This document shows, piece after piece, positions 23,899 to 33,553 of a stretch of 64,000 bases of DNA. The stretch's first letter is position 1, and the number at the start of each line of letters is the position of its first letter. The notes beneath the pieces were generated by a model that saw only the letters and a list, made by a program, of their open reading frames with translations, had not been told where the DNA came from and ran no database searches. This DNA comes from an uncultured Faecalicoccus sp. (GTDB lineage: Bacteria > Bacillota_I > Bacilli_A > Erysipelotrichales > Erysipelotrichaceae). Made by a program: the position numbers and the translations under genes. The stretch lies in contig NZ_CALVGO010000001.1 of NCBI RefSeq assembly GCF_944327125.1, positions 2,827 to 66,826 of the forward strand, read 5' to 3'.

Positions 23899-24885
23899 GT
23901 GATTGATTTGAACGATTGGATCCGCGTTCTCTCTAAGAATCCATCTGTGCTGGAAACCATATTGAACGATCCAATGAAATTAGATCTGAGTGTATTTGAC
24001 AAGATGGCTCACGACGATTTCAGTCTTCGAAGTGCTCTGCACGATCCCAAACGAGGTATCATCCACTATTCGATTGAGGGACTGGTTAGTCTCGAAGATT
24101 TTTTGAATCAGGTAACTTTTGAAGATAGAGAAGGATATCTTTTTCTGGATCAACTTTTTGAGACAGCCATCGCGGTCAATCGAAACAAACCGGTTTTGTT
24201 TGATCCATCTTATGTGTTTGTATCTCCCTATGGCGACAAGTTCTATTTTCTTGTCGTTCCCATTATGCTGGAGGAATGGATGTTTCAAAAGGAACAGATC
24301 TCATCATGGGTCCAGTATCTTTCCAAACATTTCAAAACACATACGGCGTATGAAATCATCGGCTATATGCTGAGTCTTTCCCAAAGTGATGAATTTTCCT
24401 TACCCAATCTGATTTCCGGTTTGGTCAATTTAAAGGATCATTATTATCCGAAAAAAAGACATTTCTTTTCTATTCCAAAGAAAGAACGGTTTTATTTAAA
24501 AGAACCGGTGCACTCTCTTTACTATGATGCATACTCTTCGGCTTCCAAGGTAGTACATGAAGAAAATGGTACACAGGTCTTAGGTGAGCCTTTGGTAGGC
24601 AAAGCCTATTTGATCCAAGAAGATACCCAGGAGAAGTTCATGATCCAGTTTGAATCCACGGTTGTCGGCCGTACAGTATCTTGCGATATTCAGTTATTGG
24701 AAGATTCAATATCCTTAAAACATGCCGAAATACTTTATGAGAATCAACGATACTATATCAAAGATCTGAAAAGCCGAAACAAGACCTTTCTTAACGGAAA
24801 ACAGGTGATTCGAAAGATGCGTTTAAAAGAAGGAATGCGGATTCAATTTGGGAATATAAACTTCATTTTCCATGAAACTGGATGA
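23899..24885 (+). CDS. FHA-domain protein (unknown N-terminal domain plus C-terminal FHA); first gene of the T7SS-like operon
   Basis: C-terminal VVGRTVSCDIQLLEDSISLKHAEILYENQRYYIKDLKSRNKTFLNGKQV is a canonical FHA core. The start is uncertain: GTG 23899 or TTG 23908. Confidence 0.75.
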   Translation: MIDLNDWIRVLSKNPSVLETILNDPMKLDLSVFDKMAHDDFSLRSALHDPKRGIIHYSIEGLVSLEDFLNQVTFEDREGYLFLDQLFETAIAVNRNKPVLFDPSYVFVSPYGDKFYFLVVPIMLEEWMFQKEQISSWVQYLSKHFKTHTAYEIIGYMLSLSQSDEFSLPNLISGLVNLKDHYYPKKRHFFSIPKKERFYLKEPVHSLYYDAYSSASKVVHEENGTQVLGEPLVGKAYLIQEDTQEKFMIQFESTVVGRTVSCDIQLLEDSISLKHAEILYENQRYYIKDLKSRNKTFLNGKQVIRKMRLKEGMRIQFGNINFIFHETG

Positions 24886-26254
24886 TAGCCGATATCGAGT
24901 TGTGGAAAACTATCACATGTCATTCAATAGCCGCGTTGATCTCGTGGAAGATCAGTTAACAGGAAAGAGATATATCTCGAAGTCAATCGATTTAAACAAA
25001 AGTACACCTGTCTTGATTCATCAATTGAAAACAGAGATCCATATTCTTTCTTTGTTGAATGATGTGCACGTACCGCAGCTATCGGATGTGATACTTTCTC
25101 ATGACTCTATGAGCTTGATTGAAACAAAAATTGATGGAATACGCCTGGATCAAATCCAAAATCGATGGACAGTTCTCAGATATCGAAAAAGATGGGCGTT
25201 GGAATTGATGCACCTCTTGGAAACCCTTCACCAATTCGGTTTTCTTTATATCGATGTAAAAAAAGAAAATCTAATTGTATCGAAAAACCATCTCTTTCTC
25301 ATCGATTTCAACGCTTGTATTCCTATTCATTCTGTTCAGGCTTGTATGGCCTCTCCCTCAAATGAGGCTCCTGAATTGAAAACTAAAAGTAGAAAGGAGG
25401 TATACACAGATATTTATGCATTGGGATCGCTGATGACGAGTTTTTATCATTTTGGTTTTCTTAAAATATGGATTCGAAAATGTATGCGTGTAACACCGCA
25501 AAAGAGATATCCAAGTATCTCTAGGACTCGTTTCAGTTATCTGATGTTCCTTTATGTCCAAAGAATTTTGATGATCTGTGTTTTTATATTTCTGTCTGTT
25601 TTCTGGATCTTTCAAAATTCTTTGGCGTATGAAGGGACACTGATGGAAAAGTATCGGGAAGAGATCATGGAAATCACAGGTACAAGGCAGGAAAAAACAC
25701 AGATTGTTCTTCATGACTGGATCGTAAAAGGAAAACTTAAAAAAGGATCTTTTGACGATAATCAAACCGCAAAGTATTTTTTGAATCAAGCTTTATTGAC
25801 AAGAAATGTCGAAGTAATTCGATACATTGTGCAAAACATACCGAAATCTATCGTAAAAGAGATCTATGTTCCTTATCAAATGGCAAGGATGATATCAAGC
25901 CCGGACAAACCAATGTCGCAGAAACAGATTCTGAAACTTTTGCGTGCTATAGAAAAAGAAAAAGATCTTTTAACCCGTGTAGACAACCTTCAGCTCTTTG
26001 AAGAAATATTACTGGAAAAAGAAAGAGTCTTATCAACAGAAAATGTCCAGTATCTATCAACGATTCATCATAGATGGACCAACCAGCAAATGAAGGAAAA
26101 TCAGGAGATATTTTTAAAGTTGGCTTGTACTCATGGGGAATACTGTCTTTATCTGGAAACCAGGGGGTTCAAGAAACAGACGTTGCCAGATAACTATATA
26201 GAGATGTTTAAAGAGGATCAAACGTTCAAAAAAATCATGAAGATGATGGAATAG
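24872..26254 (+). CDS. membrane protein with a cytoplasmic Hanks-type kinase-like domain, one TM helix and an extracytoplasmic C-domain (EssB/YukC position and topology)
   Basis: Kinase subdomain motifs: K in RYISKSI, E in LKTEIHIL, YIDVKKENL (catalytic loop D-x-K-x-x-N), DFN (DFG-like), APE, DIYALGSL. There is no Gly-rich loop. TM helix at about 25532-25612. The start overlaps the previous stop by 14 nt. Confidence 0.7.
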   Translation: MKLDDSRYRVVENYHMSFNSRVDLVEDQLTGKRYISKSIDLNKSTPVLIHQLKTEIHILSLLNDVHVPQLSDVILSHDSMSLIETKIDGIRLDQIQNRWTVLRYRKRWALELMHLLETLHQFGFLYIDVKKENLIVSKNHLFLIDFNACIPIHSVQACMASPSNEAPELKTKSRKEVYTDIYALGSLMTSFYHFGFLKIWIRKCMRVTPQKRYPSISRTRFSYLMFLYVQRILMICVFIFLSVFWIFQNSLAYEGTLMEKYREEIMEITGTRQEKTQIVLHDWIVKGKLKKGSFDDNQTAKYFLNQALLTRNVEVIRYIVQNIPKSIVKEIYVPYQMARMISSPDKPMSQKQILKLLRAIEKEKDLLTRVDNLQLFEEILLEKERVLSTENVQYLSTIHHRWTNQQMKENQEIFLKLACTHGEYCLYLETRGFKKQTLPDNYIEMFKEDQTFKKIMKMME

Positions 26255-26263
26255 GAGGCGATT

Positions 26264-32463: not shown

Positions 32464-33262
32464 TACCCAAAGACTTAGACAGCTAGCCTATGGACTCATG
32501 TCTCGAAAGCGGTATGGCGGAACCTTAAAAGATCCCGTCCAACGTTTTAGACACGAACGGATCCAGGAAAAACTGAATGTTTTTATTGATCATCTTAACC
32601 ATACAGCCCATGCCTATGAGACAGCCGATCGGTCTTTGTTTTCGAATTTTAGAACATACAGTAAGGAGGGAACAGCTAGTTTTTATCACAGCGAAGATCT
32701 AAATTTGATTTCACAACTGACAAAAAAAGAAGATCCCAGTGTATTTTCAGTGGGAGCTTCATGGTCATTCAAGGAAGTGGGGGCCGTGTATCAGTCGAAA
32801 TATTTAAACGCTTCTCTTCGATCGGATTTAGGCTCCATTGAAGCTGAAGGATCGTGTTCCATAGGGCTATGGAAAGAAGGCGAATTTGATCCATCTCTTG
32901 ATCTGGAAGCACAGCTGGAAGCATCACTGGTTTCCTGCAGCGCACAGGCTCGTTTGGGAACAGCCAATGCGTATATACAGACAAAGGCCACTGGATCGAT
33001 TGGAACCGTTTATGCAAAGGCAAACTGTACCCTGACAAAAGAGGAACAAAACCTGGAAGCAGGCGTTGGAGCAGCGGCTCTTCGCGGAGAAGCATCGCTG
33101 GCGTTTAGTTTATTTGGGGCAAAGATCACCTTGACAGCACAAGGATCGATTGGAAGCGCCGAAGCCAATGTATCTTATCACCATAAAAACAAAGAGTGGG
33201 AGTTTTCCAGCAAACTGGGATTTATCGCAGGTCTGGGATTTAAAGTGAATGTCAAATATTAA
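32453..33262 (+). CDS. candidate T7SS substrate: helical N-terminus with YxxxD plus a repeated amphipathic beta-rich C-terminal domain
   Basis: 269 aa with no signal peptide. AHAYETAD at aa 53-59. Three G-S-I-[EG] repeats (LGSIEAEG, ATGSIGTVYA, AQGSIGSAEA). Ends in the alternating GFKVNVKY. Confidence 0.6.
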   Translation: MEIDTQRLRQLAYGLMSRKRYGGTLKDPVQRFRHERIQEKLNVFIDHLNHTAHAYETADRSLFSNFRTYSKEGTASFYHSEDLNLISQLTKKEDPSVFSVGASWSFKEVGAVYQSKYLNASLRSDLGSIEAEGSCSIGLWKEGEFDPSLDLEAQLEASLVSCSAQARLGTANAYIQTKATGSIGTVYAKANCTLTKEEQNLEAGVGAAALRGEASLAFSLFGAKITLTAQGSIGSAEANVSYHHKNKEWEFSSKLGFIAGLGFKVNVKY

Positions 33263-33274
33263 GGAGGTGTGAGA

Positions 33275-33553
33275 GTGAAAGAATTATTGCCTATAGGAAC
33301 GGTTCTGACATTAAAAAACGGATCAAAAAAAGTGATGATCACAGGACGCATCCAAAGAGAAAAAAAGACAAAGAAAGTATTTGATTATGCCGCATGTCTG
33401 TGGCCTGAAGGTATGCTGGATTCCAGCCATTTCTACTTGTTCAATCATGAAGATGTAGATATTTTATATCATATTGGTTATCAGGCACTGGAAGAATTCC
33501 AATTTCGCAGTGTGTTGGAAGAAGAAATAAAAAAATTAGAGGAAGATCATTGA
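33275..33553 (+). CDS. DUF4176-like small protein
   Basis: The pattern KELLPIGTVLTLKNGSKKVMITGR...DYAACLWPEG...YLFNHEDVDILYHIGY resembles DUF4176. The GTG at 33275 is 7 nt after GGAGG; the tracked GTG at 33269 is too close to the RBS. Confidence 0.65.
   Translation: MKELLPIGTVLTLKNGSKKVMITGRIQREKKTKKVFDYAACLWPEGMLDSSHFYLFNHEDVDILYHIGYQALEEFQFRSVLEEEIKKLEEDH

Follow-up and report, generated by a model that had tools for sequence, protein, structure and literature searches.

The type VII secretion systems (T7SSs) closest to the one described here were catalogued by Garrett, Higginson and Palmer (2024, Microlife; PMC11217815), who defined the subtypes T7SSc to T7SSj from gene neighbourhoods. 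One of them, T7SSe, was defined computationally and comprises the components TseA1, A2, B, C, D, F, H, I, J and K. TsxJ, TsxD and TsxI are the defining components of T7SSd, T7SSe and T7SSj, and T7SSe alone has J, D and I together with both a ubiquitin-like B and a pair of WXG100 proteins; T7SSj was separated from T7SSe by the phylogeny of the ATPase and by differences in the components. The ATPase TsxC of every subtype has four predicted NTPase domains (PMC11217815). According to the same source, the FHA domain of the T7SSb ATPase, EssC, is devoid of the phosphothreonine-binding residues, and T7SSb has a single WXG100 protein, EsxA. Proteins with the DUF4176 domain have been shown experimentally to be chaperones of T7SSb toxins, and those of 70-130 amino acids (aa) form their "small" size class (PMC12478183). 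Here we compare with these systems a ten-gene cluster at positions 23899-33553 of a 64-kb stretch of DNA from an uncultured gut Faecalicoccus (Erysipelotrichaceae; contig NZ_CALVGO010000001.1), which we call the window throughout. The cluster is a real, intact type VII secretion operon, and we consider it likely that it is a streamlined, functional and chromosomally inherited T7SS of the T7SSe lineage.

All ten open reading frames (ORF1 to ORF10) lie on the + strand and were called at the expected coordinates. Five junctions overlap, by 14 nucleotides (nt) (24872/24885), 29 nt (28005/28033), 8 nt (31444/31451), 4 nt (32290/32293) and 11 nt (32453/32463), and the genes at the other junctions are separated by gaps of 6-14 nt; the original prediction, which was made from the sequence and which proposed a single packed secretion operon with five overlapping junctions, was correct on each of these points. 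The cluster is flanked by a divergent gene that ends at 23829 and a convergent gene that starts at 33547. The description of the operon as atypically composed holds for its gene content and fails for its base composition: the fraction of G and C (GC) is 0.36-0.42 across the locus, compared with about 0.40 for the window. Domains were assigned to the ten ORFs with Pfam and NCBIfam models, and neither collection gave a match for ORF3, ORF5, ORF8, ORF9 or the divergent membrane protein described below.

That the cluster encodes a T7SS follows from its ATPase and its WXG100 proteins. ORF4 (28005..31451) encodes a TseC/EssC-like translocase ATPase of 1148 aa, in which Pfam finds an FHA domain and one FtsK_SpoIIIE domain. 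Its best NCBIfam match is the EssC model TIGR03928, with 252 bits (1e-74; under the 778-bit cutoff of this model) compared with 31 bits for FtsK, and its best sequence matches in PDB are YukB (1e-73) and EccC. A Foldseek search with the AlphaFold2 (AF2) model of ORF4 gave the same picture, with EccC at 5e-22 and EssC D2-D3 at 2e-18 versus about 1e-12 for FtsK; the FHA tandem of S. aureus EssC, EccC and EssC D2-D3 were all found above or level with FtsK. The ATPase therefore sides with EssC and not with the DNA translocases, the point on which the original prediction had staked its case. An FtsK-type DNA translocase and a conjugative coupling protein were both considered and rejected as the identity of ORF4, as they score far under EssC and EccC and as WXG100 genes are present. 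With an EccC/EssC-type membrane ATPase and a WXG100 pair in the same cluster, the locus has what characterises a type VII secretion operon.

The architecture of ORF4 consists of a tandem FHA-like N-terminus, two transmembrane (TM) helices, a D0 domain, one FtsK-type domain (D1) and shrunken D2 and D3 domains that have no P-loop. The sole Walker A motif is G562MTGSGKS and the Walker B motif is D674-E675; both D1 motifs are invariant. The FHA domain keeps its phosphothreonine-binding residues (G83-R84, S98, H101 and N116). We see one Walker A motif, located in D1, in each Erysipelotrichales TsxC examined (1064-1323 aa), compared with up to three in canonical relatives. In D2 and D3 of ORF4 the P-loop positions are substituted and about 200 residues are deleted relative to canonical EssC, and the whole protein is about 330-350 aa shorter than the canonical EssC proteins, slightly more than the roughly 300 aa that had been noticed at first. 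Since the C-terminal 380 aa can be linked by hhalign to mid-size relatives (95.8%), and the mid-size relatives to canonical D2-D3 (99.8%), this chain of profiles from short to canonical proteins indicates that the C-terminal part has descended from D2-D3. The ratio of nonsynonymous to synonymous substitution rates (dN/dS) in this degenerate C-terminal third is 0.14. The AF2 model (pLDDT, its predicted local confidence score, of 67), built from an alignment of 16 sequences, contains FHA-like beta domains in tandem, then two TM helices together with a long stalk helix, D0 and D1, and after these a pair of small alpha/beta domains that span roughly 850-995 and 1020-1143. As for the start of the gene, translation from ATG 28005 gives the 1148-aa protein, identical to a database protein (P0001), and an exact database look-up of the 1155-aa form that begins at TTG 27984 returned no match; ATG 28005 is most likely the true start and TTG 27984 an alternative.

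The two proteins of about 97 aa that had been taken for WXG100 proteins scored above the model cutoff in the profile searches (49.8 bits for ORF6 and 35.2 bits for ORF7, Pfam cutoff 27.3). ORF6 (31695..31991; 98 aa, W42-Q-G), the A1 protein, matches WXG100 with 4e-13 and TIGR03930 with 1.5e-13, again above the cutoff, and ORF7 (32003..32293; 96 aa, W43-Q-S), the A2 protein, matches WXG100 with 1.5e-8. The WxG motif of ORF6 is invariant in 14 orthologues. The WxS motif of ORF7 is invariant too, and ORF7 in addition has a C-terminal Y83-x-x-x-E87, a YxxxE motif invariant in 15 orthologues. The two are paralogues with 33% identity, that is, two non-identical WXG100 proteins as in T7SSe.

Between the ATPase gene and this pair lies ORF5 (31444..31680; 78 aa), which we assign to the TseB/EsaB-like small proteins by its position and size. 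Both its place, overlapping the end of the ATPase gene, and its size are kept in all loci examined. The size had rightly been compared with that of YukD and EsaB; the likeness to YukD itself finds no Pfam support and comes from weak profile signals, namely ubiquitin variants as the best PDB matches of the family profile (E 0.02) and an hhalign value of 64% to a protein that neighbours a T7SSe-like EssC and has a weak YukD annotation. The protein probably has a ubiquitin fold.

Together with ORF5 and the WXG100 pair, the three opening genes, which the original prediction had listed among the unusual points, point to T7SSe. ORF1 (23899..24885) encodes a TseJ-like cytoplasmic protein with an N-terminal domain that resembles DUF6382 and an FHA domain at the C-terminus. 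Pfam gives 8e-21 for FHA and 3e-4 for DUF6382 (20.9 bits, under the cutoff of 26.7), and the family profile aligns over 251 columns with the DUF6382+FHA protein of a T7SSe-like locus (hhalign probability 97%). The phosphothreonine-binding residues G-R, S-x-x-H and S-x-N are kept in all orthologues, and there is no TM segment, as in TseJ. The true start of the gene is probably TTG 23908 rather than 23899, because of better Shine-Dalgarno spacing and agreement with the N-termini of the orthologues.

ORF2 (24872..26254) encodes a TseD-like single-pass membrane Ser/Thr kinase (Pkinase 4e-17) with the kinase domain inside and a domain of about 200 aa outside. As predicted, it has Hanks-kinase motifs: K37, E55, D128-x-K130-x-x-N133 and D145-F-N147 are invariant among orthologues whose overall identity is 28-40%, and among PDB entries the family profile matches S. 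aureus PknB best (4eqm, 7e-17). The glycine-rich loop is absent from the ORF2 subfamily; distant orthologues, from the loci L013 and L014 discussed below, have both GxGxxG and DFG.

ORF3 (26264..28033; 589 aa) is a TseI-like exported protein with a signal peptide, Ig-like repeats and a C-terminal TM anchor. The N-terminal signal-like stretch and the C-terminal hydrophobic helix can be read from the sequence, so that this part of the original description stands. Its Ig likeness is not seen by Pfam and comes from profile comparison, in which the family profile matched the L013/L014 proteins (hhalign probability 97.8%, with additional off-register repeat matches), and the L013 counterpart has the Ig domains Big_13, Big_3_3 and Big_7. 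By this profile homology to Ig-repeat proteins, ORF3 corresponds to the TseI of T7SSe. Its relatives are longer (850-1042 aa). In the Holdemanella-type orthologues (L001, L002 and L005-L008), the hydrophobic anchor is replaced by a short amphipathic basic tail (e.g. ...FLEWIKDWIKRLHG); for this reason, these proteins may be released or attached differently.

All ten genes recur, in unchanged order, in eight further Erysipelotrichaceae loci, five of which were called or checked gene by gene, with EssC identities of 28-43%; the synteny that the original prediction had suggested examining is therefore present. The carriers include Holdemanella metagenome-assembled genomes (MAGs), Eubacterium sp. 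AF22-8LB and Erysipelotrichaceae MGYG-HGUT-03689. An ATPase that is at least 90% identical to ORF4 and in the same protein cluster is annotated in RefSeq as WP_297236488.1 from an uncultured Faecalicoccus sp., and among 5.8 billion protein clusters only five (1112-1148 aa) cover ORF4 over its full length. The relatives share the chromosomal site, with the cluster upstream of two convergent genes and the suf operon, and dN/dS is 0.02-0.40 for each of the ten genes (three species pairs). Because order and site are kept in relatives and dN/dS is low, the cluster must be regarded as real, vertically inherited and under selection. A horizontally acquired island was ruled out, given that the GC content does not deviate and that the cluster occupies the same site beside the suf operon across species.

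The link to T7SSe is provided by two distant Erysipelotrichales loci, L013 and L014. They contain J, a PP2C phosphatase (F), the kinase (D), a 68-75-aa TM protein (H), the Ig protein (I, 850-1042 aa), an ATPase (C) of about 1310 aa, B, A1 and A2, and downstream the trio of helper, beta-protein and DUF4176 genes that is also found in the window; TseK was not identified in either of them. In addition, the closest long EssC relative of ORF4 (P0006) has kinase, PP2C, FHA, DUF6382 and WXG100 genes as neighbours. Since L013 and L014 have the T7SSe gene set minus TseK, and in view of the neighbourhood of P0006, the locus in the window is best read as a reduced T7SSe derivative. The original prediction was open to refutation if this gene set was already catalogued as a described subtype. 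In its general architecture it is, among T7SSd, T7SSe and T7SSj (PMC11217815); on the other hand, the exact reduced form without TseF, TseH and TseK, the ATPase with one P-loop, the family of beta-sheet cargo and the co-conserved membrane gene are undescribed. Neither the Erysipelotrichaceae nor these Faecalicoccus accessions are in the TsxC lists of PMC11217815, and we were not able to find any literature on T7SSs in Erysipelotrichaceae, Holdemanella, Faecalibaculum or Faecalicoccus.

A further step of reduction is seen in Candidatus Merdibacter merdavium (L012, 8832-15253), where J is followed by a 1172-aa ATPase, B, A1, A2, a 266-aa beta protein and DUF4176, and where neither a kinase gene nor an Ig-protein gene separates J from C. 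Together, these loci form a deletion series, from L013/L014 (J, F, D, H, I, C, B, A1, A2) over the locus in the window (minus F and H) to Merdibacter (also minus D and I), which leaves untouched the ATPase and the ubiquitin-like protein as well as the WXG100 pair and one cargo module. As T7SSc to T7SSj are known from genome comparison alone, the question which of their parts are essential is one that this series addresses: the stepwise loss of components in Erysipelotrichales loci points to T7SSe parts that may be dispensable.

The cargo module is the trio of ORF8, ORF9 and ORF10, that is, a 57-aa helical protein, a 269-aa beta protein and a DUF4176 protein, which is kept after the WXG100 pair across the order-level Erysipelotrichales set. 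The 269-aa protein had first been seen as a single odd candidate substrate; a candidate it remains, and it turns out not to be isolated. ORF8 (32290..32463) is found at the same place in all loci, with counterparts of 82-85 aa in the distant ones. It has no hydrophobic segment and a dN/dS of 0.12-0.40, and by analogy with Lap proteins it is a candidate targeting partner of ORF9. ORF10 (33269..33553; 94 aa), whose gene stands directly 3' of the 269-aa gene in all loci, matches DUF4176 (PF13780) with 2.4e-28 and 98.4 bits (cutoff 25), as had been anticipated; being inside the small size class and beside a candidate cargo gene, it has the features of the Ltc-type toxin chaperones. Database annotations place its start two codons downstream.

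ORF9 (32453..33262), the candidate substrate itself, was modelled as had been proposed. The AF2 model (pLDDT 84) consists of a helical hairpin (residues 5-63) and seven antiparallel strands of 19-26 residues each, with a strict hydrophobic/polar alternation, and a Foldseek search against PDB gave no significant match, the nearest being MACPF pore hairpins and outer-membrane barrels with E > 8e-3. A closed OmpA-like barrel of eight strands was ruled out (TM-scores, a measure of structural similarity, of 0.1-0.3). The family, which is abundant in human and animal gut metagenomes, comprises 57 clusters at 90% identity, none with a Pfam domain, and 519 representatives at 50% identity, in which the beta domain is always C-terminal, also in the longer forms. 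The dN/dS of ORF9 is 0.05-0.08. A distant relative from a metagenome (P0267, 731 aa) combines an N-terminal Mbeg1-like/class 3 lipase domain with a C-terminal beta-sheet domain (541-730), and this lipase-like fusion is a hint of modularity: the beta domain may be portable.

The divergent gene upstream of ORF1 does end at 23829, as reported, and it is more than a mere boundary of the operon. It encodes a polytopic membrane protein of 184 aa with about five hydrophobic segments (23275..23829, - strand), and a homologue is found at the same divergent place beside the J gene in all 12 Erysipelotrichales loci for which upstream sequence is available, although the genes beyond it vary between loci. 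N20, D28, N33, W50, I91-P92-Y93, H105 and E159 are invariant, and the polar residues among them (N20, D28, N33, H105 and E159) suggest more than a passive membrane anchor. With the link drawn from the conserved neighbourhood, the protein is a candidate for an additional T7SS component or an immunity protein.

There are several points that weigh against our assignment to T7SSe, or against parts of it. The locus misses three parts of the T7SSe definition, since neither it nor the rest of the 64-kb window nor the flanks of the relatives contain TseF, TseH or TseK: tblastn searches with the PP2C and the TseH-like proteins of L013/L014 found no match in the window or in the 10-kb flanks of L001-L008 and L012, no PP2C was matched by Pfam among the ten ORFs, and the packed ORFs leave no space for genes such as TseH or TseK. 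The letter "e", as opposed to "j" or a new letter, is a provisional choice made by gene content, and the defining paper is the sole one to mention T7SSe as a subtype of T7SS, with no experimental evidence for any T7SSe. ORF2 has no glycine-rich loop, and the APE region is absent in some orthologues; potentially, it is a pseudokinase, in which case the phosphorylation switch proposed below would need another kinase. The ubiquitin-like assignment of ORF5 is weak, and the AF2 model of ORF4 is of modest quality, with a pLDDT of 50-73 in the last domain. Finally, the [Y/F]xxx[E/D] motif at the N-terminus of ORF9 is conserved in part only, and its secretion is deduced from genomic context.

Instead of a reduced T7SSe, the cluster could represent a distinct subtype that has no letter yet, an Erysipelotrichales lineage whose marks are a TsxC with a single P-loop, the module of beta protein and DUF4176, and the polytopic membrane protein of the divergent gene. 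The one Walker A motif per Erysipelotrichales TsxC, compared with the four NTPase domains published for subtypes c to j, speaks for such a lineage, as do the trio and the divergent membrane gene, which occur order-wide, belong to none of the subtypes published and are missing in the T7SSe-like locus L088. The absence of the accessions and taxa from the published lists fits as well, and T7SSj was split from T7SSe on similar grounds. We nevertheless regard a separate subtype as unlikely: L013 and L014 have the T7SSe core (J, F, D, H, I, C, B, A1, A2), so that descent from T7SSe with later loss is more parsimonious, and the closest long EssC relatives sit in T7SSe-like clusters. A new letter would also be partly a matter of naming.

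The original prediction had assigned the operon to a T7SSb-like system, and one could think of an atypical T7SSb, in which EssA, EssB and EsaA of the EssC-based Firmicute system are swapped for non-homologous proteins. Much of the locus does look like the systems of S. aureus and B. subtilis. It has a Bacillota host, an EssC-type ATPase with tandem FHA domains, two TM helices, D0 and D1 (with the EssC model and YukB as the best matches of ORF4), a ubiquitin-like small protein, a WXG100 protein and a DUF4176 chaperone beside a cargo gene, DUF4176 having been studied so far in T7SSb. Furthermore, ORF2 takes the position and the topology of EssB, a single-pass protein with a kinase fold, a TM helix and an outside domain. 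However, the models for YukC/EssB, EsaA and EssA gave no match in any of the ten ORFs, nor did EssA and EsaA in the divergent membrane protein, in a search confined to the window; the absence of EssA and of EsaA/YueB had been noticed correctly at the outset. Unlike EssB, ORF2 is a Hanks kinase whose catalytic residues are intact, and the FHA domains are apparently competent to bind phosphothreonine, unlike those of the T7SSb EssC (PMC11217815). There are two WXG100 paralogues instead of a single EsxA, and one of them has a YxxxE motif as in EsxB of T7SSa. D2 and D3 are without P-loops, and there is no LXG toxin or immunity array, the LXG models having no match among the ten ORFs, as expected from the prediction. 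J, D and I are defining parts of T7SSd, T7SSe and T7SSj. The component content thus largely refutes a T7SSb, and we give this assignment very little weight. That the cluster is a decaying, non-functional remnant of a T7SS is hardly credible, since the lost P-loops of D2/D3 with multiple deletions relative to canonical EssC, the shortened proteins, the lost glycine-rich loop of the kinase, the loss of TseF and TseH and a Merdibacter locus without D and I are set against ten ORFs that are intact in each genome examined, low dN/dS even in the degenerate C-terminus of EssC, catalytic and binding motifs that are invariant among orthologues of 28-43% identity, and maintained overlaps of start and stop codons.

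What the analysis shows is the gene content, the homologies, the conservation of motifs, the synteny and the purifying selection. Returning to a reduced T7SSe, we infer beyond this a model for the architecture of the complex, the phosphorylation switch, the identity of the substrates and the activity of ORF9. By analogy with the T7SSb and T7SSa structures and the T7SSe model, ORF4 would be the membrane translocase, with export powered by its single catalytic D1, and the D2/D3 remnants, ORF5 and the tandem FHA N-terminus would serve as docking or regulatory surfaces. The ORF2 kinase and the Ig-repeat protein ORF3 would complete the envelope complex, and ORF1 would act as a cytoplasmic FHA adaptor. 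Assembly or activity is probably gated by the phosphorylation of threonines, with the FHA domains of ORF1 and ORF4 as readers, because the catalytic residues of ORF2 are kept except for the glycine-rich loop and both FHA domains keep their binding residues; such a switch has been proposed for T7SSe and shown for a type VI system (PMC11217815). As no dedicated phosphatase is encoded, it would be reversed by a housekeeping PP2C or not at all. The cargo would include a WXG100 heterodimer of ORF6 and ORF7, with the YxxxE signal on ORF7, as well as ORF9, whose helical hairpin would pair with ORF8 for targeting and which ORF10 would stabilise until it is exported. Once secreted, ORF9 may insert into a membrane, as its amphipathic beta sheet suggests.

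One may go further and see in this locus a minimised machine. It would consist of a translocase with one ATPase domain and nucleotide-free D2/D3 stubs, a switch without phosphatase, and a fixed cargo that represents a new class of T7SS substrates, a membrane-inserting, pore-forming beta-sheet protein which its DUF4176 chaperone keeps competent for export; its kinase would be drifting towards an EssB-like scaffold, which would make it a living intermediate between the kinase-regulated T7SSe and the pseudokinase-based T7SSb; the divergent membrane protein would provide self-protection or be a missing channel subunit, and the carriers would be the Faecalicoccus/Holdemanella clade. Taken jointly, these claims are speculative, and we would rather doubt that they all hold. 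Regardless of that, a single-P-loop EssC under purifying selection bears on the role of nucleotide binding by D2 and D3 in T7SS ATPases. If ORF9 is truly a secreted, membrane-active beta-sheet protein, it would widen the cargo repertoire of T7SSs and be relevant to the interactions of gut Erysipelotrichaceae with their neighbours or with host cells.

Several features of the window surround the cluster. A palindromic hairpin with an 11-bp stem and five GC pairs was found by pattern match at the convergent gene junction (33538-33562, both strands); it is likely a bidirectional terminator. Beyond it, two tandem genes on the - strand (33547-34530 and 34430-35476) converge on the end of the operon. 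A PpiC rotamase domain is present in the upstream one, and as the N-termini of both are lipoprotein-like or TM, they look similar to PrsA. They were rejected as parts of the system, as they are kept beside the cluster in the close family only and are not found beside the distant loci. On the other side of the cluster, a glycine riboswitch (18393-18482, +; 70.9 bits) and a flavin mononucleotide riboswitch (20001-20117, +; 98.1 bits) are both located upstream of transporter-like genes; the corresponding region of the syntenic locus L003 contains a Na/Ala symporter and an ECF transporter component. The genes for tRNA-Trp(cca) (16097-16170, -), tRNA-Ser(gga) (20925-21012, +) and tRNA-Arg(tct) (52808-52884, -) are unrelated to the cluster.

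The protein P0014 lies on a metagenome scaffold (L089, 10001-21227) that contains an FHA-bearing EssC with three P-loops as well as WXG100, PP2C and kinase genes. Next to them are genes that are typical of diderm bacteria (CsgG, FlgT_N and an OEP outer-membrane factor), and the annotation of a related protein, P0017, names a Synergistaceae MAG as its source. The scaffold could thus represent a diderm lineage with a T7SS-like cluster.

Among the other described systems, T7SSd (A, C, D, H, I; PMC11217815) resembles the locus in being compact and without a phosphatase and shares the FHA-bearing ATPase and the membrane kinase; it differs in being confined to Actinomycetota and in having no B, no J and no second WXG100 protein. 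T7SSj (A, B, C, D, F, I, J and K, without H; PMC11217815) likewise shares the FHA-bearing ATPase and the membrane kinase with the locus, but it is known from few Clostridium species only, has a single TsjA and a kinase with a C-terminal TPR domain, and keeps F and K. A membrane Hanks kinase together with FHA proteins inside a secretion cluster is also found in the threonine-phosphorylation control of type VI secretion (PpkA/PppA/Fha1, and TssL-Fha in Agrobacterium; PMC11217815), and suggests that assembly of our system would depend on phosphothreonine, although the type VI machine is unrelated and our locus encodes no cognate phosphatase. The trio can be compared with the LXG/Lap/Ltc modules of T7SSb (PMC12478183, PMC10801868), in which a small helical protein and a cargo with an N-terminal helical region are likewise accompanied by an adjacent DUF4176 gene. 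In contrast to these modules, ORF9 has a helical hairpin of about 63 aa in place of an LXG domain and, instead of a polymorphic toxin domain, a conserved amphipathic beta sheet at its C-terminus; it is under strong purifying selection, and there is no obvious immunity gene downstream. Finally, the locus departs from T7SSe in that it is without TseF, TseH and TseK, in its ATPase of 1148 aa with one Walker A motif instead of four NTPase domains, in a kinase without the glycine-rich loop, in a TseI-like protein cut to 589 aa, and in the fixed helper/beta-protein/DUF4176 module with the co-conserved divergent membrane gene. What it has in common with T7SSe is a TseJ-like protein with DUF6382 and FHA domains, a TseD-like membrane kinase, a TseI-like signal-peptide Ig protein with a C-terminal TM helix, a TseC whose FHA domain has the phosphothreonine-binding consensus, a TseB-sized protein encoded right after the ATPase gene, a non-identical WXG100 pair and a Bacillota host.

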